Shown: positions 12,098 through 39,784 of the stretch, piece by piece
Position numbering within the stretch: the stretch's first letter is position 1
How the letters are laid out: the number at the start of each line of letters is the position of its first letter
NCBI GenBank assembly: GCA_965248265.1
Contig: CBDFJF010000002.1
Coordinates: 2,528,001 to 2,592,000, forward strand
Direction of reading: 5' to 3'
Length of the DNA: 64,000 nucleotides
Source of the DNA: Candidatus Latescibacterota bacterium
Lineage (GTDB): Bacteria; Latescibacterota; UBA2968; UBA8231
The notes under the pieces: generated by a model
The model's input: the letters and a program-made list of their open reading frames with translations, nothing else
Database searches by the model: none
Told to the model about the DNA's origin: nothing
Position numbers and translations under genes: made by a program

Positions 12098-12099
12098 AG

Positions 12100-18063: not shown

Positions 18064-18128
18064 TTCGATCACGTCGAGCCTGCGGCCGGCAACCAGTTTC
18101 ATCCTTCGTGACAAGACAAGGTGGCATC

Positions 18129-23388: not shown

Positions 23389-23405
23389 GGCTTTTCCCCC
23401 CTCCC

Positions 23406-26400
23406 TTAGTAGTCGAGCCGCAGCGTCATGACGTACGACCGCGTGTTCGGATTGTTGAAGTAGTCCAAACCGCGCAAGTTGCTCGCGCCGGTCAGGTTGG
23501 TCTCGGGATCGATCCCCCTGTAGTCCGTCCAGGTCGCGAGGTTGCGGGCGCTGAGGCGGAGGTTGAGGTTGGTCAACCCGAGTTGCTGCACGAAATCCCC
23601 CCGGAAGTCGTAAGCCACGGCGATCTCGCGCAGCTTGATGTACCCGCCGTCCTCGACGAACTGAGACGCCGGGCCCGAAAGGCCGCTGCCCAGGTTTTCG
23701 AGATGCCAGGCCTGACCCTTGGCCACTTCCGTACCCGCACCTGGGCCCTGGCCCTCGAACACCTGGGTTCCGTCGCGATCCTCGGTGTCCTTGTGTGTGC
23801 CGAAAAAGTAGAGGGCCCCCCTGGTTCCGTTCCACACCTCCCCCCCGCTCCTGATGTCGAACAGCCCGGAGACCTCCAGGTTGTTGAATAGGGTGACGGT
23901 GTTGCGGATGCTGCCGGTCCAGTCGGGATTGGGATCACCGATGATGCGGATCTCCGGATCGAGGAGCGGGTATCCATCAGCCGCGATATAGAGATCGCCG
24001 GAGTTCCAGCCCGTGTACCTCTCATCGATGTTCACGTTCTGGGTCTCGCCATCGACCTCTTCGTCGATCTTGATGCCGCGCCCGAAGCGGATGAAGTCCT
24101 CGCCGCGGAAGACGCCCACAGGCTCTCCCTCGATGGCATTGCCAGTGGCGCTGACCAAGCCGCCCAGGTTGACGAATTCGGCCCCTGGCAGGTCGGTCAC
24201 CTCGTTCCGGTTGCGCGCGTAGACCGCGTTAACCGACCACTTGATGTCCTTGGTGCTCACCGGCTGGCCGTAGATACCGAGCTCGACTCCCTTGTTGGTG
24301 ATGGTGCCCGCGTTCTTGATCTGCTCGAAGAAGCCGGTGGACGGCGGCAGTGACAGCGGGAAGATCACGTCCTCGGTCTTCTGGTCGTAGTAGGTCAGGT
24401 CGAAGCCCAGACGGTTGCCGAGCAGGCCGAGGTCGGTGCCCAGCTCCAGCTCTCTGGCGCGCTCGGGCTTGATCTTCTCCTGGCCCTTCGTGTCGTCGGT
24501 GAAAAACCCGCCCTGACCGAAGGCGGTCGAGTTGTGGACGACCCCCCAGCCCTGCTCGAAGATGTCGGTCTCAAAGGCCGTGATCGTCGAGTAGGCATTC
24601 GGCTCGCGGCCGGTCACGCCGTAGGCAGCGCGGAGCTTGCCGAAGGCTATGAGGTTCTGGTTCTGCAGCGCGTGCAGATTGGTGAAATCCCAGGCCGTAC
24701 TGAACTTGGGATACCAGTGACGTTTGCGCCCCTCGCTGAAGATCGATGAGCCGTCGTTGCGCACGCCTACCGTTAGGTAGAGCTGGTCCCACACGTCGAC
24801 CAGCGCCTGGGCGAAGTACCCCTCGGTGCGGATGATCTCTTCGTACTCCTGCGGGGTGTACGAGGAGGTGTTTGACAGCTGTTCGAAGCCGTCCACCGAG
24901 ATGCCGTTTCCTGTCGTGGAAAACTCGTTGTACTCCCGCTGGTTCAGGTTCTGGCCGACCATCAGATCCACTCTCATGTCCGCGGGCGCGAAAGCCCGCG
25001 TGGCGGTGATTGCCAGGTTCGCGTCGGCCTCGGTGGTGGTGTACTTGTCGCGGATAATCTTGCCCTGAGGCGAGTCGGAGTTGCCCAGAGGAAGCACCGT
25101 CCGCCGCTCGTCGTTGGCGTAGTCGTAGCCCAGGGTGTACCTGACGTTGAGCCAGTTGAGCGGATTGTAGTCCAGGTTCAGGTTGCCGAAGAAGCGACCC
25201 ACATCACTGATGTTGGTGTGCTCGTTGACGATGAAGAACGGGTTGTCGTACCCGCGCGAGCCCGCCAGCGACTCCGGGTTCGGATTGCGATAGGAGCGGT
25301 GGAAGCCGGTCTCCGGATCGAGATATGGCCGGTTATTGAAGTCCGGCGGTGTCCGGTAAGCGCCCAGCAGCAGGCCGCCGACGTTGGAGCCCTTCTGGAT
25401 GCGGTTGGACGAAGTGGAGGAGAAGGCCGCGTTCCCGGTGACGCTCAGCCGCCCGTTGATGCGCTGAGAAGCCTTGAGCCGGACCGCGTCGCGCAGGTAA
25501 TTCGAGTTGCCCTTGATCGCGCCGTCGTGATCGGTGCGGCCGACGGACACGAAGTATGTCGTCATGTCATTGCCGCCCGATACGGTCAGGTTGTTCTCTA
25601 CCCGGTTCCCGGTCTCGAACATCTCCCAGGCGTGGTCGTAGGTCGGTACGTCCAGAGTGTCGAGGCGGGGCCCCCAGGTCAGAGCGAACCCCTCGATCGC
25701 GCTGCCGTCGATGCCCTGGCCATAGCTGCGCTGCAGCGCAGCGCTCTCGTTTACCTCGTCGAAGCTGTAGGACATCTTGTAAGACACCCTCGGCCTTCCG
25801 GGCTGCCCCTGCTTGGTGGTGATGAGCACCACTCCGTTGGCCGCTCGGGAGCCGTACATGGCCGCCGCCGCCCCCCCCTTGAGGATCTCTACGGACTCGA
25901 TGTCCTCAGGGTTGATGTCGGCGGCCCGGTTCTGTTGAGTGACCCCGGCCACGGCGTCGCCGAGCGACGTGTTGGCCTCGTGGATGGACTGGTTGTTGAT
26001 CGGCGAGCCGTCGACGACGAACAAGGGCTGCGTGCCGCCCATGATGGAGTTGACCCCGCGGATGCGGATGTAGGATGCCGCACCCGGCTCGCCACTCGTC
26101 TTGGTGATCTCCACATTGGGCACCTTGCCAGACAGGGCGGTGACCACGTCCGCCTCATCGCTGTCGACGATCACCTTGGGTGCGACCTTGTTGATTGTGA
26201 CGCCCAGCCTTTCCCTGCTCCTCCCCACGCCGAGTGCGGTGACCACTATCTCTTCCATGTACAACACATCGATGCCGAGGACGAAGTCCGTCTTGTTGGT
26301 TCCGGCCTTCGGCACGAGTGCCGCCGTCTGGGCGCTGTGGCCGACGTAGCTGGCCTTCAAGGTGACCTCTTTACCCAAGAGGTCCCTTCCCACGGCGAAC

Positions 26401-26594
26401 CGATAGAGCCCCTCGTCGTCCGTGATGGATCCGAGGGGATTGTCGACGATGCCGACGCTTGCCCCGCCCAGTGGAGCTCCGGTCTCGTCGGTCACAGTGC
26501 CCGTGATGACGACATCGCTCAACGCGGCTGCCCAGGTCGACATCAACACCAAGACGAAGACTAGAACCGGCAGCAAGAATGTGCGGTCTCTCAT
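23406..26594 (-). CDS. SusC/RagA family TonB-dependent outer-membrane transporter
   Basis: Signal peptide, CarboxypepD_reg-like domain, EEIVVTALG, plug DINPEDIESVEILKG..AAMYGSRAANGVVLITTK, GDPNPDW, terminal aromatic residue; ATG 26594. Confidence 0.95.
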   Translation of the reverse strand: MRDRTFLLPVLVFVLVLMSTWAAALSDVVITGTVTDETGAPLGGASVGIVDNPLGSITDDEGLYRFAVGRDLLGKEVTLKASYVGHSAQTAALVPKAGTNKTDFVLGIDVLYMEEIVVTALGVGRSRERLGVTINKVAPKVIVDSDEADVVTALSGKVPNVEITKTSGEPGAASYIRIRGVNSIMGGTQPLFVVDGSPINNQSIHEANTSLGDAVAGVTQQNRAADINPEDIESVEILKGGAAAAMYGSRAANGVVLITTKQGQPGRPRVSYKMSYSFDEVNESAALQRSYGQGIDGSAIEGFALTWGPRLDTLDVPTYDHAWEMFETGNRVENNLTVSGGNDMTTYFVSVGRTDHDGAIKGNSNYLRDAVRLKASQRINGRLSVTGNAAFSSTSSNRIQKGSNVGGLLLGAYRTPPDFNNRPYLDPETGFHRSYRNPNPESLAGSRGYDNPFFIVNEHTNISDVGRFFGNLNLDYNPLNWLNVRYTLGYDYANDERRTVLPLGNSDSPQGKIIRDKYTTTEADANLAITATRAFAPADMRVDLMVGQNLNQREYNEFSTTGNGISVDGFEQLSNTSSYTPQEYEEIIRTEGYFAQALVDVWDQLYLTVGVRNDGSSIFSEGRKRHWYPKFSTAWDFTNLHALQNQNLIAFGKLRAAYGVTGREPNAYSTITAFETDIFEQGWGVVHNSTAFGQGGFFTDDTKGQEKIKPERARELELGTDLGLLGNRLGFDLTYYDQKTEDVIFPLSLPPSTGFFEQIKNAGTITNKGVELGIYGQPVSTKDIKWSVNAVYARNRNEVTDLPGAEFVNLGGLVSATGNAIEGEPVGVFRGEDFIRFGRGIKIDEEVDGETQNVNIDERYTGWNSGDLYIAADGYPLLDPEIRIIGDPNPDWTGSIRNTVTLFNNLEVSGLFDIRSGGEVWNGTRGALYFFGTHKDTEDRDGTQVFEGQGPGAGTEVAKGQAWHLENLGSGLSGPASQFVEDGGYIKLREIAVAYDFRGDFVQQLGLTNLNLRLSARNLATWTDYRGIDPETNLTGASNLRGLDYFNNPNTRSYVMTLRLDY

Positions 26595-26768
26595 GCTTTC
26601 CCCCTCCCGTGCGTGCAACCCCAAGGGCCTCCCCGATGCCAGTCCTCGGTTCAGTGCCGTCTGCATGGCGATATTGGAGACCAGTGCCCGCGCATCACCG
26701 ACGAACGGTGAGTGCAGCAGAGACGTCCCCCTGGTTATCGAAACTTACAGATATTACCTGTAGAGGTC

Positions 26769-26978: not shown

Positions 26979-27728
26979 TCAGTGGATTCTGACGACGACT
27001 GCGGTCAAGTTGTCCGCGTTCCCGCCGCGCTCACTGCGCGCAGCATCCACGAGACGGCGCGCCAGGTCAGCGGAGGGCAGATCGAGGGACAGCAACTCGC
27101 CGATGCGCTTGTGGCCGAGAGGGTCGTGCAAGCCATCGGAGCTGATCATCAGGCGATCTGCTGGGAGGAGATCATGCGTGCCGAGTTGCGGTTGCACACG
27201 TCGGACCGTTCCAAGAAACCTGACCAGCACACTGCTGTCGGTCGAGCGCGCTGCGGATTCAGTGGGCAGCAGGCCGAGGGAGACCTTCTGTTGGGAGCGG
27301 GTATGGTCCAGGGTCAGCTGCTCGAGAGTACCCTGGCGCCAACGATAGAGCCGGGTGTCACCCACATGAGCGAAGGAGACGCTTCCCTCGGAAAGAACGG
27401 CAACGGTGAGCGTCGTGCCCATTCCGAGCAGTTCCGGCTCCTGGCGTGAAGCCTGTGCGATGAACTGGTTTGCCCGTTCGCAAAGATTGTCCAAGTCACG
27501 GACGAGATCCTCAGCATCGCGGTGGGCGACAAGATCCTCGCAGACCATGCTCACGGTCTCCACGGCGATCTGACTGGCGACTCCGCCGCCTCTGGCACCG
27601 CCCATGCCGTCAGCCACCGCACAAACACGACCACCCGCGGTGTTGACGGCACGATCTTCGTTGGATTCCCGATCGCCGCGATGGGTGCACGTCCCGGCAT
27701 CCAGTGGGGACGACTGCGGATCGCTCAC
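26979..27728 (-). CDS. PP2C/Stp1-type Ser/Thr protein phosphatase
   Basis: RESNED, VADGMGG, AHVGDTRLY, SSDGL, ADNLT. Confidence 0.93.
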   Translation of the reverse strand: MSDPQSSPLDAGTCTHRGDRESNEDRAVNTAGGRVCAVADGMGGARGGGVASQIAVETVSMVCEDLVAHRDAEDLVRDLDNLCERANQFIAQASRQEPELLGMGTTLTVAVLSEGSVSFAHVGDTRLYRWRQGTLEQLTLDHTRSQQKVSLGLLPTESAARSTDSSVLVRFLGTVRRVQPQLGTHDLLPADRLMISSDGLHDPLGHKRIGELLSLDLPSADLARRLVDAARSERGGNADNLTAVVVRIH

Positions 27729-27741
27729 GGCAGGGCCGGCG

Positions 27742-30700
27742 CTACGCCGATTTGGCCACTGGTTCCAGCTCGGCGATGACCGTGCGGACGTGGTCGAGAT
27801 CGAGCGTCGCTTCGGCGCCCTCGAATATCTGTTCGGCCTTGCGCAATGGTTCCAGAGCGGCGTCGCTGTGGCCCGAATCGCGCTCCAACAGACCCAACTC
27901 GAACAGTGCTTCGGCCAGGCTCACAGATTCGCCAAACTGCCTGTTCATGTCGATGCTTTTCGCCAGGTACGTGCGTCCGTCGGCCCAATTGCGCTCGAGG
28001 CGGCAAAGGCGGCCGTAGAGGCGGAGTGCATCGGCGACTCCGAGTGAATCCTCGAGCCGGCGCAGACCCCGAAGCGCCGTTCCGCAAGCCATGCGGGCCT
28101 CGACGAGGTTGCCTTTGCCCAGAAGGGCTTCGGTGCGGTTCAACTCGATCGTAGGTTCGTGAAAAGCGAATCGAGCTGAGCGGCACAAGCTCAGACTGCG
28201 CTCGTACAATTCCAGCGCGTCGTCCCATCGCCGCTGGTCGGCCCGCAGCATACCCATGTTGTAATAGGTCAATGCGGTCTGTGGCGAAGGCTCCAGCTGT
28301 TCGTCCAGGGCGAGGACCCTTTCATACTGGTCCCAGGCGGCTTCGAGGTCCCCCCTCATAGTGGCTACGACGGCGAGATTGTTGAGGGCTTCCGACATCT
28401 CGCGCGGACCGTCTGCCGCGGCCAGTTCGACGGTTTCCCGCCAGCGGGACTCGGCCTCGTTGTAGCGCCCGCACTCGAAGTCGGCAACGCCCCAGTTGAT
28501 CAGGATCCTGGCGCGCGCCAGTGGTGCGTCCAGCCCCTCGAGGCAGCGTATTGCCTTCTCGTATCCCTGAACGGCCTGTGGGAATCTCCTCTGGTGCTCG
28601 TCCACCTTGCCCGTGAGCTTGAGGGCTTCGGCTTCGTCCAGAGGGCGTCCGGCGCGATGGGCCTCCGCGCGCATGCGCTCGCAGTGCTCGCGCGCCCGGT
28701 CATGAGCAGCCAGATAGACGTTGGCGAGAGCGCTTCGCTTCAGAGCGTGGATGAGCGCGTCGGTCGTTCCGTCCGCGATACTCTCGCAGGCCTCTATGAC
28801 CTGGGCGAAGTAGGCGCTGGCCTTGCGCCAGCTGAACAGCTCGAAGGCTTCGTCCCCGGCGGTGGTCAGGTAGGGGATGGCACGAGCAAAATCACCGGCG
28901 CCGTGGAGGTGTGTGCCAAGCTCGGCTGCGGCTATGTCGGTACCCTGAGACGAGCGCTCTTCGAGGTACGATCCGACCACGCGGTGGTATTCGCGTTTCA
29001 ACTCCCACGGAATGTCTTCGTAGAGCACCTCACGTATCATCGAGTGGCTGAATTCGAATCCGTCTTTGACGGACACGATGAGCTGGCCCTTTTTCTCCAG
29101 TCTGAAAAGCGACTTCAACGCATCCATTCTCGAGAGGCCGCCCGCCTCTTCCACAATGCTGGAGGTGAAGCGGTGGCCAACGACGGCGGCGAGCTGGATT
29201 ACCTCGAACTCGCGCCCCTCCAGCAGATCGACTCGACGGCGCACCAGTGCCCTGACCCGGTCAGGTACGGCGATCTCGCCGAGCTCTGCGCGAACCGTCC
29301 AGGCACCGCCGTCGTAGCGCAGCAGTTCCTGGTCGCGCAGCAGCTTGAGGATCTCGACCGCGACAAGCGGATTGCCCTGCGCATGCTCGAACAGGAAATC
29401 CACGAAGTCGCTGCTATAATCCGATTCGTAGAACAAGGAGCCCACGAGACGGTTCGTGTCCTGCCAGGACAATCGGCGCAGGTGCCGTTCGACCAGCACG
29501 CCCTCAGCGTCAAGTTGCTTGATGAGACTCGACAGAGGCCCTTCGCTCACCTCTGCCGTCAGCTCCTCTGGGCGATACGTGACGACACACAGCACCTGGC
29601 ATTCGGAGATACGTCGCACGAGATAGTGCAACAGCTGCAGAGACCCCTCATCGGCCCAGTGCACGTCTTCGAGGCAGAGGACCAGGGGCTTCAACTCGGA
29701 CGCGGCAGCAAAGAGCTCGAACACGGTATCGAACAGACGCTGCCGCCCCGCATCAGCATCCGAATCGGAGCCGAAAGCAGCCGCGAAACTGGCCCGCACC
29801 TTGGCGGTCGTGCTCGAGCTGGTGGCGAGATCGACGAGCTCCGGAGCCTTCTCCCGCAGTATCTTCTCCAGCGCGCTTCGCTCGGATTCGGAGGCGTCGT
29901 CCCGCTCACCAAACAGGTTGCTGACGGCGTCGAGGAAAGGCATGAATGGACCGAGTCCGTGTTCGTAAAAGCACGCGCCCTGCACGAAGCGACCACCGTG
30001 CTCGGTGGCGTAGCTGGCTAGCTGCCCGACGAGACGACTCTTGCCGATTCCAGCCTCGCCCGCCAGGAAAACCATCCGACCGCCGTCTGACAGCGCGTCG
30101 AAATCGGCCCGCAACGCATCGAGCTCGCTTCGACGTCCAGTGAAACGCGGCTGGAAATCGCGATTGCGCAGACCGTAGTCCTCCTGCTCACCGTCATACG
30201 GCCGCGGCTCCAGGCCGGAGATCTCGCCCAGCTCCAAACGCCGTTGGATATCGAGAAGGGCGGCGATGGCGTCGCCTGCCGCGGCGAAACGATGTTCGGG
30301 TAGCTTCTCCAGCAGCCGCAGGACCAACCGGTCCAGCGCCGTCGGAATGGCCGGATTGTGGAACGACGGCGCCAGCGGCTCTTCGTTGAGCTGGTGGTAG
30401 ACCAGAGTAGCCGGCGAGTCACCGGACACCGGCTGCGTTCCCGTCAGCATCTCGTAAAGGACGACGCCGACCGCGTAGAGATCGACGGCAGGCCCGATGT
30501 CCTCACCGAGAATCTGCTCAGGGGCCATGTATTCGACCGTCCCGAGTATCTCATCGGCGCGCGTCAGGAAGGCGCCGTCCTGAAGCCTGGCGACGCCAAA
30601 GTCGAGGACCTTTACCACGCCTTCGTCCTTCAACAAGACGTTGTCGGGCTTGATGTCACGGTGGATGATCGAGCTCTCGTGGGCGACTCGGGCGGCATCC

Positions 30701-31077
30701 ATCAGCTGTAGCGCGATGGAAAGGCATTCGGGTACCGGCAGGCCGCCCATGCTGGCCTGCAGCAGGCTGCGCAACGACTGGCCCTCGATCAGTTCCATCG
30801 CCAGATAGAGATAGCCGTCAGCCCTCCCGCTGCGATACACCCGGACTATGTTGTCATGGTCAAGCTTGGCGGCCAGGCGCGCTTCGCGCACGAACCGCTC
30901 GTCGGCTCGCCCGTCGCCATCGAGGGATATCACTTTCAGTGCCACATCGCGTTCCAGCACTTCGTCCCAAGCTCGGTACACCGTCCCCATCCCGCCCCGT
31001 CCGACAACGTGCGTGATGCGGTAATCGTCGAAGGTATAGCCTATCAAGTGATCAAGCGGCGGCATGGATGACTTCAT
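27742..31077 (-). CDS. Hanks-type Ser/Thr kinase fused to a STAND/AAA ATPase and TPR repeats
   Basis: GRGGMGTVY, VALK, HRDIKPDN, DFG, YMAPE; Walker A GEAGIGKS, Walker B CLEDVHWAD, AQGNPL; C-terminal TPRs. Confidence 0.93.
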   Translation of the reverse strand: MKSSMPPLDHLIGYTFDDYRITHVVGRGGMGTVYRAWDEVLERDVALKVISLDGDGRADERFVREARLAAKLDHDNIVRVYRSGRADGYLYLAMELIEGQSLRSLLQASMGGLPVPECLSIALQLMDAARVAHESSIIHRDIKPDNVLLKDEGVVKVLDFGVARLQDGAFLTRADEILGTVEYMAPEQILGEDIGPAVDLYAVGVVLYEMLTGTQPVSGDSPATLVYHQLNEEPLAPSFHNPAIPTALDRLVLRLLEKLPEHRFAAAGDAIAALLDIQRRLELGEISGLEPRPYDGEQEDYGLRNRDFQPRFTGRRSELDALRADFDALSDGGRMVFLAGEAGIGKSRLVGQLASYATEHGGRFVQGACFYEHGLGPFMPFLDAVSNLFGERDDASESERSALEKILREKAPELVDLATSSSTTAKVRASFAAAFGSDSDADAGRQRLFDTVFELFAAASELKPLVLCLEDVHWADEGSLQLLHYLVRRISECQVLCVVTYRPEELTAEVSEGPLSSLIKQLDAEGVLVERHLRRLSWQDTNRLVGSLFYESDYSSDFVDFLFEHAQGNPLVAVEILKLLRDQELLRYDGGAWTVRAELGEIAVPDRVRALVRRRVDLLEGREFEVIQLAAVVGHRFTSSIVEEAGGLSRMDALKSLFRLEKKGQLIVSVKDGFEFSHSMIREVLYEDIPWELKREYHRVVGSYLEERSSQGTDIAAAELGTHLHGAGDFARAIPYLTTAGDEAFELFSWRKASAYFAQVIEACESIADGTTDALIHALKRSALANVYLAAHDRAREHCERMRAEAHRAGRPLDEAEALKLTGKVDEHQRRFPQAVQGYEKAIRCLEGLDAPLARARILINWGVADFECGRYNEAESRWRETVELAAADGPREMSEALNNLAVVATMRGDLEAAWDQYERVLALDEQLEPSPQTALTYYNMGMLRADQRRWDDALELYERSLSLCRSARFAFHEPTIELNRTEALLGKGNLVEARMACGTALRGLRRLEDSLGVADALRLYGRLCRLERNWADGRTYLAKSIDMNRQFGESVSLAEALFELGLLERDSGHSDAALEPLRKAEQIFEGAEATLDLDHVRTVIAELEPVAKSA

Positions 31078-33479
31078 GCGTTTGTGGAGGAGGGTAGGTC
31101 GAGCAGCATCTGCTCGGTTTTTCTCGCCTGTTCGACAGATCCCACATCCCGGAAAAGAGTAGAGGACTCCCTCAGATGTGATCGGGCCGCCTCGAGATCG
31201 CCTTGTTCATGTCTCAAGAGGCCGATCTCGCGTGTGCACTCGGCCAGAGTCAGCCTGTCACCTTGGACCTGCAACCCAAAGCGGGCTTGTCCGAGCAGCT
31301 CAACGGCGCGGGGATACTGCTGCTGGTTGCGATAAATCATGCCTTCCACCAGGTCGCATTGCGTCATGCCTTTGGCGTAGCCCATGGTTTCCATCGAGTT
31401 CCGCGCAGCGCGACAGGCGGCGTCAGCGGCGCTGTAATCGCCCAGATTCAGGTGCGTTCGAGCCTCGTGTACCTGGCCGAGGGCTACCAGGTCCGTGGCT
31501 CCAAGTTGGCGGGCCAAGCCCACGCTTTCTGTGTAGCAGCGCAACGCCTCCTTCCACCGTCCCTGGTCTTGCTGGCTTGCTCCGAGTCCGGCGTAGGATT
31601 CGCAGATCCCGTAGCCGTCCCCCGACCTGCGCCGCGACCGCAGGGCTCGCATGTGATAGAGGGTGGCTTCGAGATGCTTGCCTTCCAGTCCAGAAAGGAC
31701 GCCAAACTGCTGGCGGATCAAGGCACGCAGACGCCCATCGTCACCGGAGCCGGCCAACTGGCGGGCCTGCGCGAAATACCGGCGCGCCTCTTCGCGACGC
31801 GAAAGTGATAGCGTAGACAACCCGAACCGCACGTACAGCTCGGCCATGACGGATGGTTCGCCCAGCGGTTCGAGTGTGTCCAGGGCCTCGCGGTTCAGCT
31901 GTAGAGCTTCTTCCGGGTCCCCTTGGCGCAGTCTCAAGGAAGCCAGCTGCATCAGGGCCTTGCCGATCATGAGCGCATGTTGTTCCGGATGCGAGATGCG
32001 TAGGACCTCGCGGCAGCGTTGCGCCGACTGCGTCCATTCACCCATGTGCTCGTCGACCTGTGCCAGCACGAGCAGAATGCCCGGCTTTCTGATTCGAGTC
32101 TGCTCGGCTTCGAGAAACTCACAGGTTTCGAGGGCGGCTTCGTAGAGACGCCGGGTCGCGAGGTAGTCGCACGCGGCAAAGGCCCGCTGTCCCGACGTGA
32201 TCAGATAGGGCAGCGCGCGAATGGATCTGTCACTGCGGAAGAAGTGAAATGCCAGCGATTCGATCTCGCGTGGCACTCGCCTTTCCAGCAGCTCAGCGAT
32301 GCGGCGGTGAACACGTTTTCTCTCGGCCGGCGGCAGCAGCTCATACAGGGTCTCGGCCAGGATGCCGTGGGCAAACTGGAACTGCCGTTCGGTCGATTCG
32401 ATGACATGGAAACGGCGCTCGATGCGGCCGAGGGTGTGCAGAACCTCCACAGTTGGGCGCCGCAGCACTGAGGCCAACAGCAGGCTTTCGAAACGCTGAC
32501 CCTGTACGGCTGCACGACTCAGAAGGGACTGATATTCACTTGGCAGACCCTGCACTCGCTGGCGCACGAGCTCACGTACCGAGTGAGCCACCGGCAAATC
32601 CTCGACCCGCCGATTTCTCCAGATGCCCCGCTGGCGGTAGATGATGCCACGATCTCTCAGGAACTCCAGGCATTGCAGGACAAACAGAGGGGATCCCCCC
32701 GTCTTCGCGTGAAGCTGGCCGACGAGATCCTGGGTGAAGTCCGCAGGCGCGAAGCAGGAATCGGCCAGCGCTCTGGTCTCGCGCAGGGAGAGGGGTCCCA
32801 GGTTCAGCAGCTCGGTCTTGGACTCGGAGCACAGGTGTAGGACGAGTCTGTTCGGTCGCTGCCAGCGACCCTGCTCGTCCGCGTGTCCGCCAGTCTGATA
32901 CGCACCGACCACAAGAATCGGCATCTGATGGACCTGCTGTGCGAGCTGGCGCAGCAGCAGGAGTGCTGGCCAGTCCGCCAGATGCAAGTCGTCGATGAAG
33001 AGGACGAGGGGACGGTCTTCCGCCACCGCGAGCAACAGGGATCGGACTCGGACAACGAAGAGCGCGCGCCGCATTTCGGCATCGCCGTCGTCCTCCTCGG
33101 AGGTGACCTCTCCTTCACCGGAGAACAGGAACGGCCAAAGATGTGGTGCGAACTGCTCCACCGCGTCGCGCAGAGCTCGCTGTCCAGAGTCAGGAGCCTC
33201 GTGATCCAAGCCCTTCAGGATCTCGATGAGGCAGCCATAGGCGATCTCAGGGCCCGCTGGATCACCCCCGCCAGCGAGGTAGGGCATGCCGCACCTGTGA
33301 GCGATGCGACCCACTTCGGCAGCGAGTCGGCTCTTCCCTGATCCATCTTCGCCGGCGATCAGCACCATCGATCCGCGTCCCGCTGCGGCGGCGGCCATTT
33401 TCTGGCGCAGCAGCGCAAGATCAGCGTCTCGGCCTATGAGGTCAGACTCTATTCGACTCCCAGGACCACCACTCACCAT
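31074..33479 (-). CDS. STAND/AAA ATPase with TPR repeats, no effector domain
   Basis: LIGRDADL, GEDGSGKS, FIDDLHLAD, TGGSPLF, TPRs; ATG 33479 after GGAGG; ATGA overlap with the kinase gene. Confidence 0.88.
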   Translation of the reverse strand: MVSGGPGSRIESDLIGRDADLALLRQKMAAAAAGRGSMVLIAGEDGSGKSRLAAEVGRIAHRCGMPYLAGGGDPAGPEIAYGCLIEILKGLDHEAPDSGQRALRDAVEQFAPHLWPFLFSGEGEVTSEEDDGDAEMRRALFVVRVRSLLLAVAEDRPLVLFIDDLHLADWPALLLLRQLAQQVHQMPILVVGAYQTGGHADEQGRWQRPNRLVLHLCSESKTELLNLGPLSLRETRALADSCFAPADFTQDLVGQLHAKTGGSPLFVLQCLEFLRDRGIIYRQRGIWRNRRVEDLPVAHSVRELVRQRVQGLPSEYQSLLSRAAVQGQRFESLLLASVLRRPTVEVLHTLGRIERRFHVIESTERQFQFAHGILAETLYELLPPAERKRVHRRIAELLERRVPREIESLAFHFFRSDRSIRALPYLITSGQRAFAACDYLATRRLYEAALETCEFLEAEQTRIRKPGILLVLAQVDEHMGEWTQSAQRCREVLRISHPEQHALMIGKALMQLASLRLRQGDPEEALQLNREALDTLEPLGEPSVMAELYVRFGLSTLSLSRREEARRYFAQARQLAGSGDDGRLRALIRQQFGVLSGLEGKHLEATLYHMRALRSRRRSGDGYGICESYAGLGASQQDQGRWKEALRCYTESVGLARQLGATDLVALGQVHEARTHLNLGDYSAADAACRAARNSMETMGYAKGMTQCDLVEGMIYRNQQQYPRAVELLGQARFGLQVQGDRLTLAECTREIGLLRHEQGDLEAARSHLRESSTLFRDVGSVEQARKTEQMLLDLPSSTNA

Positions 33480-33526
33480 AGCTTTCCTCCAGGCCACTCA
33501 AGCCCATGCCGTCACACAGCCAAGAT

Positions 33527-34258
33527 TTACAATGCATATGAGGAGTTGCGAAGCCCGTATCGGGAAAAGTGCGGGACCTCGATTACAATGGTCACGGACT
33601 CGAATGACGCCGACCCGTCGTCATCGTCATCATCGTCGTCGCCATCGTCATCATCACCATCGTCATCACCGTCATCGCCATCGTCATCGTCATCACCGTG
33701 GGTTTCGATGGAAATGATGTTGGTTTCCCCGATTTGGCCGTCATCCGAGACAACCAGAGCCCGGAGCGTGGACGGATCCATGTCCACCAATTCGGCGTCG
33801 AGCTCGATCTCCAAATAGGGGCTGGGGGCCTCTTCGACAAACCAATAGGGCGACGGTCCCAGCTCGACGACGAGCAGGCTGAGGGGCGCTGGTCGCACCG
33901 CCATCCTGATGCGCACAGCCTCGGTGACTGCGCCCTCCGGGATCACCAGTTTCAGGCTGAGATCATCATCCTCGATCTTGAGCCGTGTTTTCTCATCAGG
34001 CTCGGCGACCTTCGATGTCGAGAGCCAGTCGCCGTCATCATCATCGTCATCATCCATGGCCTTGGCGGCGACGGGCGACTGCGGCGAGAACACGAGGTAT
34101 ACCTTGCCGTCAGGCGATGATGGTCCAACGGCATCGGTATCGGAGGATGTGGGCGGGTGCTCGACCCCGCAGCCCAAGGCGGCGATGGCGAGAGACAGCC
34201 CGACCACAATGAACGGTGCAGTCAGTAGAGTTCGGATGCGCTGTGCGAACGGAACCAT
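33527..34258 (-). CDS. Acidic lipoprotein with a ZU5-like domain, poly-Asp inserts and a C-terminal HFS motif
   Basis: Lipobox ALGC; LVIPEGAVTEAVRI..VVELGPS..F (ZU5-like); IEVPHFSRYGL; ATG 34258 after AAGGAG. Confidence 0.7.
   Translation of the reverse strand: MVPFAQRIRTLLTAPFIVVGLSLAIAALGCGVEHPPTSSDTDAVGPSSPDGKVYLVFSPQSPVAAKAMDDDDDDDGDWLSTSKVAEPDEKTRLKIEDDDLSLKLVIPEGAVTEAVRIRMAVRPAPLSLLVVELGPSPYWFVEEAPSPYLEIELDAELVDMDPSTLRALVVSDDGQIGETNIISIETHGDDDDDGDDGDDDGDDDDGDDDDDDDDGSASFESVTIVIEVPHFSRYGLRNSSYAL
33617..33698 (-). repeat. (GAY)n low-complexity tract encoding DDDDDGDDGDDDGDDDDGDDDDDDDDG
   Basis: Direct reading; a second shorter tract at about 34030-34055. Confidence 0.9.
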
Positions 34259-34322
34259 AGGGGGAAAGCTCCTTTTCAAAAGGGGAAGCTCCTTTTCGAG
34301 CGAGACTGTCCAAGCATCACAT

Positions 34323-34338
34323 GGCAAGAACCATACCA
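34323..34338 (-). promoter_or_regulatory. Sigma54 -24/-12 promoter
   Basis: Minus strand TGGTAT-GGTTC-TTGCC with exact GG-N10-GC spacing, about 65 nt upstream of ATG 34258. Confidence 0.75.
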
Positions 34339-34388
34339 ATGCTGAACTTGCTCATCGTCTACGATTCAGCTTGGAAAAAACATAGACA

Positions 34389-34486: not shown

Positions 34487-34864
34487 TCACGCCGTGAACT
34501 TCATTAGAATGTGCCCCATTTTGAGCAGATCATCGTCTTGCAGCCGGGTGATCGCCGAGATTCGCTCTCCATTCACGAAGGTGCCGTTCGTGCTGTTGAG
34601 GTCTTCCACCCAGAAACACCCGTCGTCGTAAGTGATCCTGGCATGGCGGGAGGACACCTCCTCGTCGTCGACGACGAGGTCATTGGCTCCGTCACGGCCG
34701 ATGGTTCGGGCGCTGTCCCCGACTAGGTACTCGCGGTTACCCTCGTCTCCCAGCAAAATGAGCCGCCCGACGATGAACGGGTCCTCCGCAAGCTTGTTGC
34801 CGCAGAACGTGCAGAAGGCGTTGTCGTTCTTGTTCTGATTGCCACAATTCGTGCACAGAATCAT
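34487..34864 (-). CDS. Zinc ribbon + FHA domain protein
   Basis: CTNC..FCTFCG; FHA motifs IGR, VSSRHA, DLNSTNGTFVNG. Confidence 0.92.
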   Translation of the reverse strand: MILCTNCGNQNKNDNAFCTFCGNKLAEDPFIVGRLILLGDEGNREYLVGDSARTIGRDGANDLVVDDEEVSSRHARITYDDGCFWVEDLNSTNGTFVNGERISAITRLQDDDLLKMGHILMKFTA

Positions 34865-35145
34865 GATCCGAGTCGCGCTTTCGCCTCCTCGATGCGCTCC
34901 AGTAGAGCGTCGTTTCCAGGATCTCTCTCCAATGCTTTCTGCCAGGTCTCCAACGCCTCGCTGTACTGCTCCTGTTTGAAGTAGACGAGGCCGAGGTTGT
35001 AATAGATATCCACTAGATCCAGGGATTTCTGTGTGCGGGCGCCACTATCCATGTATCCGACCTCGTCGGACAAGCGCTCACCGCACTGCCCGCAGTAGTG
35101 GTCCCCATCCGCGTGGGGTGCTCGACAATTGGCACACTCTGGCAT
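34861..35145 (-). CDS. Zinc ribbon + single TPR protein
   Basis: CANC..YCGQCG; YYNLGLVYFKQEQYSEALETWQKALERDP. Confidence 0.88.
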   Translation of the reverse strand: MPECANCRAPHADGDHYCGQCGERLSDEVGYMDSGARTQKSLDLVDIYYNLGLVYFKQEQYSEALETWQKALERDPGNDALLERIEEAKARLGS

Positions 35146-35702
35146 CAGGCCGCCGCCAGGTCAAAACCGCAGCTGCCGCAGAAACGATCGCCCGGGTCGT
35201 ACGGCTCAGCGCATTCGCTGCAGGTCAGCTCGCGTTGCAAAGCGCCCCCGCACTGACGGCAGAAGTGGTCGTCGGACTGAGACGGTGTGCCGCACTGAGG
35301 GCAATAGCGAAATCGGCTGACCTCTTCACCCTCCAGCACGCGACGCAGCTCATCCATCAGACGCTTGACCTCGAAAGGTTTGGCGATTATGCCGCATATC
35401 CCGAGCTCGATCAGCGGGCCGATGCGATCTTCGTGCAGGTAACCGGACACGATGATCGTGGGCGGGATCGGCAAGTTCCTGCGTTTCAGGTGGGCCAGCA
35501 GGTGGTCCCCGTGCGGCCCCGGCATGTGCAGGTCCAGGAGCATGGCGTCAATCTGCTCCTCGACGATGGCGGAGGCAGCACGCGTCGCGCGCTCTACCGA
35601 CAGACTCCGGTAACCCATGCGTTCGACGATCCTCTGGATGGTATCCCGCACCGTCTTGTCATTGTCCACGATGAGGACGGTTTTCTCGCGCGTTCCATTC
35701 AT
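35145..35702 (-). CDS. Response regulator receiver + double zinc ribbon
   Basis: LIVDND, LLDLHMP, KPF; CPQC..FCRQC..CSEC..FCGSC. Confidence 0.9.
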   Translation of the reverse strand: MNGTREKTVLIVDNDKTVRDTIQRIVERMGYRSLSVERATRAASAIVEEQIDAMLLDLHMPGPHGDHLLAHLKRRNLPIPPTIIVSGYLHEDRIGPLIELGICGIIAKPFEVKRLMDELRRVLEGEEVSRFRYCPQCGTPSQSDDHFCRQCGGALQRELTCSECAEPYDPGDRFCGSCGFDLAAA

Positions 35703-36736
35703 GGTGCTGAAGATGGATTCTCGTGCTCTCTCGATAGCTCGTGGTCGAGGGGCAAGAGCAGTCGGAAGCTCGTGCCGGCGCCCGCCTTCGTCGCCACCAG
35801 GATGTCTCCTTCGTGGTCCTCCGCTATCTTGCGACAGATCGCCAGTCCCAGACCGGTACCCCGGTCCTCATCTTTCGTACTGAAAAAGGCATCGAAAATC
35901 GAATCGAGTGCCGTCGAGTCGATGCCGGGACCATCATCGCTCACCGCCATGAACAAGCAATCGCCTTCTGGAGTCTCGTCGCCGTCGACAGCGAGCCGAA
36001 CCTGTTGGCCAGAGGCGCGCTCCGACTGAATCAGAGCAGGAATGCTGGAGATGCCGGTCTCGACATGGATATGGACGGATCCTCTTCGGTCGACCGCGTC
36101 CATGGCGTTGGTCAGCAGATTTGTCAGGACCTGCTCCATCTGCGCGGGGTAAGCCCGGACCATAGGCAGGTCCGCGGCCAGCGTCGAGTCCACGGTCGCC
36201 CGTTTCATCAGCGGGCCCAGAAATTCGAGCGTTTCCGAGACGATCTGATTCAGGTCGACGGAGTGAAGCTCGCTGGCGCTGCGTCTGGAGAAGCGCAGGA
36301 CATTTCTCGTGAGCCGACCCAACCTCTGGCCGGCCTCGATGATCATCCGCACCTCCGCCTCATCGACCGGCTCGCCCGCCCTCATCAGGATCATCTCCGC
36401 CTGGCCGACGACGACCGAGAGCGGGCTGTTGATCTCGTGCACGATGGCAGCCGCCATCTGTCCCATGGCGCTCATGCGCTCGGACCGCAGCAGCATGCGT
36501 TGCGTGTCGTGCAGCTGCTCATGGGCTTCGCGCAGCTCACTCAGCTGGGCCTGGAGCTGGTCGTTTTTCCTGCGCAACTCATCGTAGGCGAGGTGCGTCT
36601 CGTGGCCGGCGAACTGCAGCACTTTCTCCATCTGCTGATAAGCCATGGCCAGCTCCTGGAGCAGGTGTGCATTGTCTCCTCGAAGGGCCAGCAGTTCGTC
36701 GCTGCCGTTATGGTCTTGCACGGTTTGCCGTCTCAA
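35699..36736 (-). CDS. Cytoplasmic histidine kinase with a coiled-coil N-terminus and no sensor domain
   Basis: VHEINSPL, NLLTNAMDA, DDGPG, FFSTK, GTGLGL; no TM; TTG start overlaps the upstream stop. Confidence 0.9.
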   Translation of the reverse strand: MRRQTVQDHNGSDELLALRGDNAHLLQELAMAYQQMEKVLQFAGHETHLAYDELRRKNDQLQAQLSELREAHEQLHDTQRMLLRSERMSAMGQMAAAIVHEINSPLSVVVGQAEMILMRAGEPVDEAEVRMIIEAGQRLGRLTRNVLRFSRRSASELHSVDLNQIVSETLEFLGPLMKRATVDSTLAADLPMVRAYPAQMEQVLTNLLTNAMDAVDRRGSVHIHVETGISSIPALIQSERASGQQVRLAVDGDETPEGDCLFMAVSDDGPGIDSTALDSIFDAFFSTKDEDRGTGLGLAICRKIAEDHEGDILVATKAGAGTSFRLLLPLDHELSREHENPSSAP

Positions 36737-38097
36737 TCCCCGGAATTCAGGTCGTATTTGGCCATGCGATAGCGGATCTTGTCGCGGCTGACGTGCAGCA
36801 GGTTCGCCGCCCGGCTGACGTTGCCGTCGGTGTGCTCGAGCGCGGCATCGACAACCTGACGCTCGATCTCTTCCAGCGGAATTCCTTCAGGAGGGAAGGC
36901 AATCGACACACGCCCATCTTCCCCAAACTTCAGCTCCTCACCCGCGGCAGTGCGCTTCGATCGGCGATCGATGATCAGGTCATCGGCTTGAATGATATTT
37001 CTGTCGGCCATGACCACGGCCCGTTCGATGACGTTACGCAACTCACGCACATTGCCTGGCAGGGAATAGGACATCAGAAGCTGCCGCGCATCTTCCGCCA
37101 GGCGTCGGGGAGGTGTCCCGTGCAGGGAAGAGTAGAGGTCGAGGAAATGCTCCGCGATCATCAACACATCTTCTCCCCGCAGGCGCAACGGCGGCAGTAT
37201 GAGCGGCACAACGTTGAGCCTGTAATACAGATCCTCGCGAAAGTGCCCCTCCTTCACGCGCGCTTCGAGGTCCTCATTGGTCGCGGCGAGGAAGCGCACG
37301 GAGATCTCGATCTCCTCCGTTCCGCCAACGCGGCGGATTCGCTGCGTTTCCAGCACGTGCAGGAGTTTGGCCTGCAGGTGCGAGGGCAGGAGCCCGATTT
37401 CGTCGAAAAAGAGGGTGCCGTCGTGAGCTGTTTCGACCAGTCCCTGCTTCATCGTCTTGGCATCCGTGAACGCGCCCCGTTCATGGCCGAACAGCTCCGA
37501 CTCGAGCAGGTTGCCAGGGATATTGGTGCAGTCGACGGTGACGAACGGGTTGTCGCCAAACGGGCTCAGCATGTGAATGGCGCGGGCGATGACCTCTTTG
37601 CCGGTGCCGCTTTCCCCCCGGATCAGCACCGTCGCCGTCGTCGCCGCCACCTTGTGCACCATCCGGTAGACCTCCTGCATGACCGGACTGTGGCCTATCA
37701 CGCCTTCCAGTTCCCGGAATCCCGCCGTCGAGCCGGGCTCGTCGAGGAGATGGTCGATCAGGACGCGGAGCTCGGGCAGTGGAGTGGGTTTGGTCAGGTA
37801 GTTCTCCGCCCCGAGCTTCATGGCTTCGACGACTGTGTCGACATCACTGTAGGAGCTCATGATGACGACCCTGCAGCGCGGGGCTCTGCGTTTGAACAGG
37901 CGCAAGAGGTCGAGTCCGTCACCGTCCGGCAACTTGAGATCCATAATGACGACTTGCGGTTCGATGTCGTCGAACTGGATGATCGACTCTCGCGCCGAGC
38001 GCGCGCCGTGGGCTGGAAAACCACACTCGCTTATGAACTTGGTGAGGACGTCACACAGCTGCGGATCATCCTCCACCACCATCACTTTGCCGGGCAT
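36733..38097 (-). CDS. Sigma54-dependent NtrC-family response regulator (REC-AAA+-Fis HTH)
   Basis: GESGTGKE, ESELFGHERGAFTDA, FREDLYYRL, PGNVREL, GNVSRAANLL. Confidence 0.95.
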   Translation of the reverse strand: MPGKVMVVEDDPQLCDVLTKFISECGFPAHGARSARESIIQFDDIEPQVVIMDLKLPDGDGLDLLRLFKRRAPRCRVVIMSSYSDVDTVVEAMKLGAENYLTKPTPLPELRVLIDHLLDEPGSTAGFRELEGVIGHSPVMQEVYRMVHKVAATTATVLIRGESGTGKEVIARAIHMLSPFGDNPFVTVDCTNIPGNLLESELFGHERGAFTDAKTMKQGLVETAHDGTLFFDEIGLLPSHLQAKLLHVLETQRIRRVGGTEEIEISVRFLAATNEDLEARVKEGHFREDLYYRLNVVPLILPPLRLRGEDVLMIAEHFLDLYSSLHGTPPRRLAEDARQLLMSYSLPGNVRELRNVIERAVVMADRNIIQADDLIIDRRSKRTAAGEELKFGEDGRVSIAFPPEGIPLEEIERQVVDAALEHTDGNVSRAANLLHVSRDKIRYRMAKYDLNSGD

Positions 38098-38241
38098 TTT
38101 CCCTCGAAACACTCAGATGAGGTACCCTAACCCTCGTGCTGTTTGAACATAAGTTAACTGATCGCACATGGATCGGACAGAAAACAGTCGTGGTCGCCGC
38201 GAACTGACAAAAACCACGCAATTCTGTAACAGTAAAGCGGT

Positions 38242-38339
38242 ACGGATTAAGAACGATAGGGGGACCATTATACATAGTTAACATTGCTTGGGGCTTGGTG
38301 TCGAGTGGAGTTTGGAGCTTTTGTGAGGGGCCGGATGCG
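38242..38339 (+). repeat. Repeat B, copy 2 (with an extra internal segment of about 24 bp)
   Basis: Aligns with 21661..21733; begins with ACGGAT. Confidence 0.85.
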
Positions 38340-38460
38340 ATTGGTCTTGTGGTTGAGCACCCAGCTGGTTGTCAAATGACCGCACGGCCTCAACCATGGG
38401 TTACCGCCGCGATCTGGGCAACTCTATGGGAGACAAGGAACTCTCATTTCGACATGTTGC

Positions 38461-38476
38461 GGGCACGCCGTTTGCC
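38461..38476 (+). promoter_or_regulatory. Second candidate sigma54 promoter
   Basis: GGGCAC-GCCGT-TTGCC, GG-N10-GC, about 65 nt upstream of ATG 38541. Confidence 0.55.
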
Positions 38477-38540
38477 ATTGCATGACCATCGACAGAACAC
38501 GGTCGCTCGGAAACCGCGTTTCTTCAGAAAGGTGGCCATC

Positions 38541-38897
38541 ATGTATAGCGAATCGGTCTGCGGCCTGATTGCCCTGGTACTGTGGGCACTCGCCATCGTC
38601 GCGCGAGTCGGCAGTGTGAGGCTGACGGCCGCCGCCAGACGTCATCTGCACCTGCTGGAACAGCGCAAGGTCGCATTGGCGAAAACACTGCTGGCGCTGC
38701 GTGGAGAAAGGGAGCTGCTCGACCGAAATCAGGCGCGGGCGAGCCTGGACCATTCGGCGGCATGTGAGGATGTGGCCTTGTTGCGTGGACAACTCGAGGA
38801 GCTGCGACAGGGAACCCAACGGCGCAATGACAGGATCGCGCGCCGCATCGCCACGCAACACCATGTGTGCCCCCAACAGATCGAAGCAGTCCCCTAA
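38541..38897 (+). CDS. Small protein with N-terminal TM helix and coiled coil
   Basis: ATG after AAGGTGG; GLIALVLWALAIV followed by Leu-heptad helix. Confidence 0.6.
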   Translation: MYSESVCGLIALVLWALAIVARVGSVRLTAAARRHLHLLEQRKVALAKTLLALRGERELLDRNQARASLDHSAACEDVALLRGQLEELRQGTQRRNDRIARRIATQHHVCPQQIEAVP

Positions 38898-39055: not shown

Positions 39056-39784
39056 CTACGGACCGCCAGTCGGGTAGTCGACGTAGCTGAACGTGAATAC
39101 GGCCGCTGGTATACCAGACTCGATCAGTTCGACGTGGTAGATACCCGGGCCCAGGACCAGAGACTCGAACACCGCCTGCGCATCCTCCTGCATGGAATGC
39201 CAGATTACCGGCGGCGGCTCGCTCGGAGGATCGGTCTCCTCGATGATCTGGAACTCATTTGCCATGGTCTCGAGGTCACCACCGGTCACTTCCAGGTGGA
39301 AGCAACCACCTTCCCGGGCTTCGGGGAGGGAGATGGCCATGGCGGTCGGGCCCGTCGCAATCGAGATGCTGAACTCCACGTGATTGCCGATGAAGTCGCC
39401 ACAAGGCGCACCCGGCTCACCTTCTGGCGGCTCGCCCTCGGGGGGTGGCTCGCCTTCGGGGGGAGGCTCCATGGGCTCCATGGGCGGGATGTGCACCCAG
39501 GCCACCCAGGCTCGCACTTCCTCATAGCTCAATCCGCCGCTGCCGTCGCTATCCATCATCGGGAAGGTTATCCCGAGGAGCCAGTCTTTGGCTGCCTCAG
39601 GGTCCATGGGGGGTTCGCCCACATCCTCAGGTGGTTCGGGTGGAGGTTCCCCTTCCCCGGGCGGTGGCGGCATGAGCGTTATCTGCGGCATGTCCTCCGG
39701 GGGCGGGCCTTCGTGCATGTCGGCTAGCAGCTGCCCGGTCATCAGCATCAATGCCCCTGCTGCGAGAATGATCTTCTTCATCAT
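39056..39784 (-). CDS. Secreted Pro/Glu-rich protein with one EF-hand
   Basis: Signal peptide MKKIILAAGALML..LLA; EF loop DSDGSGGLSYEE; PPPEGE repeats. Confidence 0.75.
   Translation of the reverse strand: MMKKIILAAGALMLMTGQLLADMHEGPPPEDMPQITLMPPPPGEGEPPPEPPEDVGEPPMDPEAAKDWLLGITFPMMDSDGSGGLSYEEVRAWVAWVHIPPMEPMEPPPEGEPPPEGEPPEGEPGAPCGDFIGNHVEFSISIATGPTAMAISLPEAREGGCFHLEVTGGDLETMANEFQIIEETDPPSEPPPVIWHSMQEDAQAVFESLVLGPGIYHVELIESGIPAAVFTFSYVDYPTGGP

Follow-up and report, generated by a model that had tools for sequence, protein, structure and literature searches.

A family of ZU5/GAIN-B-fold lipoproteins with a predicted self-cleavage site, encoded beside TPR proteins in Latescibacterota, as candidate precursors of peptide signals

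What does a small lipoprotein with a ZU5-like domain do in front of genes for TPR proteins, and could the end of its own chain be a message to them? We address this question for a gene in a 64,000-nucleotide stretch of Candidatus Latescibacterota DNA (contig CBDFJF010000002.1, positions 2,528,001 to 2,592,000); the whole stretch is referred to here as the window, and positions are counted from its first letter. A first-pass annotation of this DNA had pointed to ZU5-like words, a lipoprotein signal, a His-Phe-Ser motif with a 12-residue tail behind it, and tracts of Asp, and had read the protein as a cation-binding, self-cleaving envelope sensor or as a peptide signal for the downstream TPR proteins. 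The ZU5-like words, the lipoprotein signal with Cys30, the His-Phe-Ser motif and the 12-residue tail are all present in the translation of the open reading frame, which has the following parts.

33527..34258, minus strand: stand-alone ZU5/GAIN-B-fold lipoprotein of 243 aa (the open reading frame reads from 34258 to 33527)
34169..34258, minus strand: signal peptide and lipobox with Cys30 (from the sequence and Cys conservation in homologs)
34028..34054, minus strand: shorter tract of Asp ahead of the domain, residues 69-77 (from the sequence)
33545..34033, minus strand: predicted ZU5/GAIN-B beta-sandwich, residues 76-238 (from the model and its match to the AnkB ZU5 domain)
33752..33754, minus strand: Val169, on a strand, at the position occupied by His in members without His230 (family alignment)
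33614..33697, minus strand: Asp/Gly tract (residues 188-215), a variable insert in the loop that precedes the last strands (low pLDDT)
33563..33571, minus strand: His230-Phe231-Ser232, with the predicted cut between Phe231 and Ser232 (register against NLRP1 1212 and UNC5b 677)
33530..33565, minus strand: 12-residue C-terminal tail, residues 232-243, the predicted released peptide (110 distinct family tails)

The plus strand carries stops over 33527..34258. The lipoprotein gene is present in a single copy in the 7.3-Mb genome, and searches of that genome returned no paralog of it. Directly upstream of its start codon, at 34259-34300, lie two near-identical 17-base stretches, each of which holds a ribosome-binding-like word on the minus strand. 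Family searches yielded 85 proteins (four were dropped as unrelated or truncated), which together with the genome loci gave a set of 103 non-redundant sequences and a final set of 104. The lipobox Cys is nearly invariant (alignments A2 and A6), with a lipobox-like word in 84 of 103 homologs and no Cys at all in residues 13-50 of 5 of 66 family members. One subgroup (P0053, P0058, P0060, P0065, P0071, P0075, P0082 and the gene at 8569-9225 of L037) has a signal peptide, no lipobox Cys and a common Trp-containing word after the signal peptide; judging from their sequences, these are secreted forms and not lipid-anchored ones.

Searches at the level of sequence place the domain poorly. Pfam gives no domain match for the lipoprotein, the curated cut-off of PF00791 not being reached, and of 59 homologs 10 give a weak ZU5 match (best E 0.0028); NCBIfam has no family for any of four lipoproteins, and sequence and profile searches of the PDB returned nothing significant, with the ZO-1 ZU5 domain at E 0.13 only. 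In the Atlas, a homolog matched a cluster with ZU5 on 51% of its members, and Gemmatimonadota clusters were indicated for a homolog with a score of 0.96. A model of residues 51-243, built from the alignment of 104 sequences (pLDDT 82, pTM 0.76), was compared with 48,161 chains, and its best structural match was the ZU5 domain of ankyrin-B (Z 9.3, which is only slightly over the middling range of the structure-comparison method, rmsd 2.5, 107 residues aligned), followed by ankyrin-1 ZU5 (Z 8.2 and 8.0), the GPR110 GAIN domain (7.7), GPR126 (7.4), UNC5b (7.4), ZO-1 ZU5 (7.2), CD97 (6.8) and GPR56 (6.5), with NLRP1, CARD8 and Nup145 lower in the ranking at Z 4-5. Among these top rows are the ankyrin and UNC5 ZU5 domains, which we take to be non-cleaving. 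A first model from a shallower alignment gave the same picture of ZU5 and GAIN structures in the lead, and the ZU5 fold proposed from the sequence is borne out by both models in this search; Foldseek, which had been suggested as the check, found nothing in the PDB at E <= 0.001 with either model, and it was the other structure search that put ZU5 first. The last strand has a pLDDT below 50 in both models (residues 231-243 and 232-239), and an N-terminal strand, residues 53-56, is well placed (pLDDT 84) and absent from several members. It is a tempting idea that in the model this N-terminal strand could occupy the slot of the last one.

The position of the predicted cut follows from the register of the structural alignments, in which the aligned ranges stop at Phe231, opposite residue 1212 of NLRP1 and residue 677 of UNC5b. 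The aligned ranges of GPR56, GPR110 and CD97 end at residues 382, 566 and 530, which we take to be the residues preceding their cuts. NLRP1 is cut between Phe1212 and Ser1213 (PMC9700037), and Phe296 of CARD8 is the counterpart of UNC5b Leu677 (PMC3210808). Throughout the non-redundant family set the site itself is kept, with Phe231 in 103 of 103 sequences, Ser or Thr at 232 likewise in 103 of 103, and Tyr234 in 99 of 103. The residue before the Phe varies: position 230 is Gly in 82 of the 103, His in 16 and Ser in 5, and position 169, on the preceding strand, is His in 87.

The two positions appear to share one His between them. In the final set, His stands only at 230 (the -2 position) in 22 of 104 members and only at 169 in 80, with one member having both and one having neither; that is, exactly one of the two is found in 102 of 104 and at least one in 103. 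The His-Phe-Ser motif that drew attention to the window protein is thus genuine there and is not the family norm, for it occurs in 23 of 104 members, and 81 of 104 lack His230, most of the family having Gly-Phe-Ser together with the strand His. On a tree built without columns 169 and 230, each His trait changes six times, and by our reading five of these changes coincide: one at the base, one in the clade of the window protein (which is nested among Gly-Phe-Ser members), one in a single G042 paralog, one in a group of four in family f4, and one in near-identical proteins of G027 and G029, from one genus. An independent-pairs test found four pairs, of which 3.5 went the same way and none the opposite way (p 0.125, an underpowered test; the first sequence set had contained only two such pairs). 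The pattern is suggestive of an exchange of the His between positions 230 and 169 in the course of sequence evolution.

Both arrangements have counterparts among known self-cleaving domains. In the family, the strand His lies a median of 31 residues before the Phe, with a Glu eight residues further on in 45 of 81 cases. NLRP1 has Ser-Phe-Ser with the constellation Glu1195-His1186-Ser1213 (PMC9700037), and CARD8 has an upstream His270 and Glu279 (PMC3210808), and from the spacing we infer that the family's strand His would occupy the same site as the His of NLRP1 and CARD8. The His-Phe-Ser solution is that of PIDD, Nup98 and the MAIN domains (PMC3210808; bioRxiv 10.64898/2026.05.12.724683), with the qualification that His862 mutants of Nup98 cleave almost normally (PMC3210808). 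That one His is always kept is most simply explained by a catalytic site that still works, that is, one that cuts. With the conservation of Phe and Ser, the register and the one-His pattern in agreement, the self-cleavage at Phe/Ser that the first-pass annotation had envisaged is a well-placed prediction, and on the strength of fold, register and His exchange we consider it probable that the protein cuts itself between Phe231 and Ser232 by an N-O acyl shift, using His230 in the window protein and the strand His in most of its relatives.

What would be set free is a short tail. The 110 distinct tails of the family have 6-49 residues (median 9), and their first residues are conserved: Ser1 is found in 109 of the 110, Arg2 in 82, Tyr3 in 105 and Leu5 in 64, the conserved positions alternating as in a strand, and such a conserved start is also what would be expected of a structural strand. 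Beyond residue 6 the tails are acidic (183 acidic and 49 basic among 861 residues). In some proteins parts of the tail are repeated: in P0070 the first nine residues of the tail occur a second time after a pair of basic residues, L079 has three six-residue tail variants in tandem, and four G042 paralogs have the same five residues at the tail end. The propeptides of RRNPPA systems can carry tandem copies of the pheromone (PMC11343458); a structural strand needs no copies, and by analogy the repeated tails resemble these tandem pheromones.

To whom such a peptide might speak is suggested by the genes around the lipoprotein, given here with the groove (a peptide-binding groove modelled in a relative, described below) noted for the two TPR proteins.

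31074..33497, minus strand: STAND-type ATPase (AAA_16) with TPR, 807 aa, following the lipoprotein gene at 30 bases; groove degenerate
27742..31077, minus strand: Ser/Thr kinase with AAA_16 ATPase and TPR, 1111 aa; groove kept, the likely receptor by prediction
26979..27728, minus strand: PP2C phosphatase (Pfam; same place in L036)
34487..34864, minus strand: zinc ribbon and FHA protein (Pfam; same place in L036)
34861..35145, minus strand: small zinc ribbon and TPR protein (Pfam; same place in L035)
35145..35702, minus strand: response regulator receiver with zinc ribbons (Pfam; also in L035 and L036)
35699..36736, minus strand: soluble histidine kinase, no membrane segment (Pfam)
36733..38112, minus strand: NtrC-type sigma-54 activator with receiver domain (Pfam, NCBIfam)
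34323..34339, minus strand: putative -24/-12 box of the sigma-54 type, 81 bases ahead of the start codon (consensus match)

The gene order in L036 is that of the window throughout, and in a scan of 100 chosen open reading frames from 20 loci, the kinase-ATPase-TPR protein was found in 8 of 20 loci and the sigma-54 activator in 10 of 20. With a -24/-12 consensus, a match to which is by itself no proof of use, a sigma-54 box is found before 17 of 31 first genes with automatic starts, compared with 411 of 4608 (8.9%) in the genome background, and before 13 of 22 first genes with hand-set starts. The conserved cluster contains no effector or toxin domain. No oligopeptide permease was found among the 100 neighbours scanned in the 20 loci; the genome encodes five OppA-like genes, all outside the window.

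The association with TPR proteins extends beyond the window. Of 168 genomes of the phylum, 23 have the lipoprotein family and 29 the TPR family, called at E <= 1e-40; both are present in 23 genomes and neither in 139, and the TPR family occurs in 6 of the 145 genomes without the lipoprotein, in a sample whose genomes are kin to each other and many of them incomplete, with 11-18 candidates scored per genome. The TPR model had been built from 8 of the 23 genomes, the other 15 providing an independent check. A wider lipoprotein profile at E <= 0.001 reached 54 of 168 genomes, with strong matches confined to the same 23 and the extra matches mostly signal peptides or parts of large proteins, and a metagenome scan gave one short locus. 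Among 47 site-bearing lipoprotein genes (four broken or cut matches were left out of this count), 30 are followed by a TPR gene at no more than 500 bases and 38 at no more than 3.5 kb, and where loci were chosen by the lipoprotein alone, a TPR gene lies within 500 bases downstream in 13 of 17. The pairing with the TPR gene persists where the lipoprotein has been duplicated into paralogs, and it extends across the phylum. In the other families, what follows is a gene for an all-TPR protein, about 400 aa long and akin to the TPR region of the kinase; in these relatives about 60 helical residues at the N-terminus have no family match (RNPP_C below its cut-off in 1 of 12). No signal peptide and no clear membrane segment were detected in the TPR proteins of the loci, and the receptor candidates are, as in the RRNPPA criterion, cytoplasmic proteins with 5-9 TPR repeats. 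The TPR profile was compared with the PDB, and the best 60 of 64 matches include no RRNPPA chain, the best natural ones being GPSM2/LGN and kinesin light chain.

We modelled the complex with a pair from a relative, namely the all-TPR protein of L039 (42-row alignment) and its natural 30-residue tail, and not with the proteins of the window, where the tail is below the length that the modelling accepts. The complex scored 0.73 (runs of 0.74, 0.73 and 0.73) against 0.01 for the best of three controls, passing a mark that 116 of 157 solved pairs and 2 of 215 mismatched pairs reach; this pass may reflect likeness, since TPR-peptide complexes of similar fold have been solved (GPSM2/LGN, kinesin light chain). 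Between runs at least 64% of the contacts agree, with a partner pLDDT of 46-47, and the confident contacts involve tail residues 1-10 only, the best being those of residues 3-6, within the conserved part. The groove residues in contact lie one repeat apart and are conserved across the 42 rows: Asn183 in 26, Asn184 in 35, Asn224 in 38, Met227 in 31, Asp/Glu300 in 41 and Glu340 in 37. All six are kept in the kinase-STAND-TPR protein of the window, whereas the adjacent 807-aa protein keeps only Glu340. Since the groove is kept in the kinase and mostly lost in the 807-aa protein, the kinase-STAND-TPR protein, encoded by the second gene downstream, is the likely receptor of the predicted peptide in the window, and the 807-aa STAND-TPR protein is perhaps a peptide-blind partner. 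The earlier suggestion of a peptide signal for the downstream TPR proteins therefore stands as a prediction in which gene order, co-occurrence, repeated tails and the complex model of a relative agree, and it needs amending for the TPR protein next door, which has lost most of the groove residues.

We lean slightly towards the view that the lipoprotein is a self-processing precursor of a peptide signal, which is read by the TPR-bearing kinase and feeds back on its own promoter. Gene, fold, motif conservation and linkage are the observed level from which the cleavage, release, import, binding and wiring in this scheme are drawn. The protein would be exported and lipid-anchored at Cys30, a step well supported by its sequence, and the ZU5/GAIN-B domain would then cut itself at the Phe231/Ser232 bond. 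The anchor being N-terminal, the piece cut from the other end would consist of the last strand only, a peptide of 6-49 residues with a free Ser that may dissociate. Entry of the peptide into the cytoplasm, for which an oligopeptide permease from another part of the genome is the probable route, is the weakest step and is proposed by analogy; once there, the peptide would bind the Asn-lined groove of the linked TPR domain, as modelled for the pair of the relative; in the window this would be the kinase-STAND-TPR protein. Together with the PP2C phosphatase, the FHA protein, the soluble histidine kinase and the NtrC-type activator, the kinase would then set sigma-54 transcription, presumably including that of the lipoprotein's own promoter, and gene order and promoter box would in this way describe a feedback loop. 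What the peptide reports might be cell density or the condition of the envelope of the cell that makes it.

Self-cleavage does not by itself make a signal, and two other readings share this step. The tail could be cut and stay in place as a structural strand, the lipoprotein being an envelope actor and a co-regulated output of the kinase/sigma-54 cluster. The products of MAIN, GAIN and FIIND domains do stay together after the cut (bioRxiv 10.64898/2026.05.12.724683; PMC9700037), the strand-like alternation of the conserved tail positions is what such a role would produce, and the loci encode no importer; nevertheless, we regard this reading as unlikely, because it leaves unaccounted for the pairing with the TPR gene through duplications and across the phylum, the repeated tails and the groove-directed complex model, and because the partners are soluble and without an envelope part. 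Somewhat less likely still is a reading within one cell, in which precursor left in the cytoplasm by a failure of export folds and cleaves there, and its tail, as a TPR ligand read by the STAND protein, raises an alarm of export or envelope stress or of infection. This would remove the import step and would suit the few members without a lipobox Cys (the 5 of 66 with no Cys in residues 13-50) and the PspA gene that adjoins one cluster (L042), and threshold switching is typical of STAND ATPases that carry TPR sensors. However, tail ends that are specific to a genome and tandem copies of the tail fit a shared signal better, and the conserved cluster has no effector or toxin domain.

The remaining alternative concerns the Asp tracts and would make the protein a non-cleaving ZU5 scaffold that binds cations with them, a possibility that we consider highly improbable. 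Its appeal lies in the top structural matches, which are ankyrin ZU5 domains, and in the rarity of such tracts: a run of at least 8 Asp within 12 residues is found in 8 of 5825 long open reading frames of the genome, yet it recurs in 19 of 104 family members, a recurrence to be read with the bias of the word-based family search towards Asp-rich matches. The tracts are, however, missing from 85 of the 104 and sit at many unrelated loops in the other 19, their length varies among close relatives, and the loop that holds the long tract in the window protein has a median length of 5 in the family and in one close relative contains a helical insert of more than 100 residues. A scaffold of this kind also fails to explain why Ser or Thr at 232 is kept in 103 of 103 sequences and one His in 103 of 104. 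The Asp/Gly tract that had been described as 27 residues long before the last strands is indeed there (residues 188-215, 28 residues with both flanking Gly), whereas the N-terminal tract, given as eight Asp in a row, is in fact seven Asp, a Gly and an Asp (residues 69-77). Cation sensing through the tracts, which had been put forward for the protein, is not sustained by this distribution, and we rejected it as the core function of what are variable inserts.

Returning to the self-processing precursor, its parts are of known kinds, and by fold and site the modelled lipoprotein belongs to the ZU5/GAIN superfamily. Closest are the MAIN domains, microbial GAIN-like domains (Brogan and Rudner, bioRxiv 10.64898/2026.05.12.724683), which are likewise bacterial and exported, with a GAIN-B/ZU5 fold and a His-hydrophobic-Ser site, and for which the Phe/Ser cut of a His-Phe-Ser motif was shown in YfkN of B. 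subtilis. MAIN proteins differ in averaging 158 kDa, with N-terminal enzymes or adhesins and a C-terminal anchor, such that a large part is released, and the preprint's account of them assigns no signalling to the C-terminal piece, whereas the window lipoprotein has 243 aa, an N-terminal lipid anchor and no cargo, and only a short peptide would be able to leave. The main text of that preprint contains none of the terms ZU5, lipoprotein and TPR, although its supplementary tables, covering 15,000 proteins, may list such lipoproteins. The FIIND (ZU5-UPA) of NLRP1 and CARD8 is also cut after a buried Phe, has no -2 His but a His some 26 residues before the site and a Glu nine after that His, a pattern like that of most family members, and its released C-terminal piece is the signal (PMC9700037; PMC3210808); unlike the lipoproteins, these proteins are cytosolic and multi-domain, release depends on degradation of the N-terminal part, and the product is a folded UPA-CARD and not a peptide, and the window protein has gone back to the -2 His. 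Zhang et al. 2012 (PMC3482391) predicted that bacterial ZU5 domains act as autopeptidases on the exported proteins that contain them, which in the relevant sections of that paper are large RHS toxins and adhesin or hydrolase proteins, with no stand-alone lipoprotein or TPR partner among them, and the parts of Kaur et al. 2021 (PMC8195603) that touch on the subject add nothing further on such lipoproteins.

On the receptor side, the Rap-Phr type of RRNPPA system resembles the module in that the gene of an exported precursor neighbours that of a cytoplasmic receptor, which has about 400 aa, TPRs and a short helical stretch at its N-terminus (PMC9765709), and in that a short linear peptide occupies the TPR groove (predicted here) and some precursors have tandem peptide copies (PMC11343458). 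The sources just cited describe RRNPPA precursors as small propeptides cut by outside proteases, in Bacillota; the precursor of the present family, by contrast, is a folded, predicted self-cutting lipoprotein of 200-250 aa whose gene precedes that of the receptor, the same TPR domain is also fused to STAND ATPases and Ser/Thr kinases (the N-termini in the window are kinase and ATPase), and the host lineage has an outer membrane, as follows from the SusC/D-type genes in the window. The GAIN domains of adhesion GPCRs (GPR110, GPR126, CD97, GPR56) have the same fold, and there the agonist, the Stachel, is the last strand with a free N-terminal Ser or Thr; it is tethered to its own 7TM receptor, whereas here it would be a free peptide with a separate cytoplasmic reader. 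The system as a whole fits neither the MAIN architecture nor the RRNPPA precursor criterion, and full-text literature searches, the coverage of which mostly excludes subscription journals, did not find the module described.

To our knowledge, peptide-TPR signalling has been described for Bacillota and needs outside proteases, and bacterial GAIN-like domains have been described only as release devices for large cargo. The module is real and conserved, it probably represents a new kind of peptide signalling, and it would join peptide-TPR signalling with GAIN-like self-cleavage. The full form of this proposal, which we hold tentatively as a serious possibility, is a signalling class in which a GAIN/ZU5 domain would cage its own pheromone and also be the protease that frees it, the released Stachel-like strand would cross into the cytoplasm and switch TPR receptors, which in the window are fused to STAND ATPases and a Ser/Thr kinase that would feed a sigma-54 feedback loop, and the catalytic His would have moved repeatedly between the position of PIDD/Nup98 and that of NLRP1/CARD8. 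If true, there would be peptide quorum sensing in outer-membrane bacteria and a free-peptide forerunner of the tethered agonist of adhesion GPCRs, and the module has a bearing on how the tethered-agonist mechanism and FIIND-type catalysis arose. The family offers natural pairs that differ only in the position of the catalytic His, and the system can be tested cheaply with a 20-kDa domain, a synthetic peptide of 6-12 residues and a soluble TPR domain.

Several minor observations concern the family and the surroundings of the gene. In G026, G027 and G029 (L071-L075), with genomes of 1.3-1.8 Mb, lipoprotein, TPR, kinase fusion and sigma-54 box are kept, some in several copies, and the tails have six residues. 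In L041 (5331-8714), L042 (9195-12730), L052 (8594-9215) and L037 (8569-9709), the genes are split or parted from the TPR gene by insertion sequences or frameshifts; such disruption is common in signalling genes under selection for loss. The cluster of L042 is adjoined by a PspA gene. P0006, P0025 and P0040 have helical inserts of 100-200 residues, which in P0006 fill the loop that leads to the last strands and otherwise precede the domain; P0006 and P0008, whose contigs are equally long, are probably tandem paralogs. In the window, 22024-26666 (minus strand) encodes a SusC-like TonB-dependent receptor of 1086 aa, with Plug and carboxypeptidase-regulatory domains, and after it what looks like a SusD-like lipoprotein; this pair was set aside for now as a dedicated importer, having no counterpart among the neighbours scanned in the 20 loci. 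The gene at 39056-39784 (minus strand), upstream of the sigma-54 activator, encodes an exported Pro/Glu-rich protein with a weak EF-hand match (E 0.036), and since L036 has an unrelated gene in that position, it was not counted as part of the conserved cluster. Divergent from the activator, at 38295-38897 (plus strand), is a small open reading frame without a Pfam match, with a hydrophobic segment and the look of a coiled coil. Further away, 9473-12202 and 18060-19304 encode what by their look are histidine kinases with PAS domains, one of them with an exported pectin-lyase-like N-terminus.
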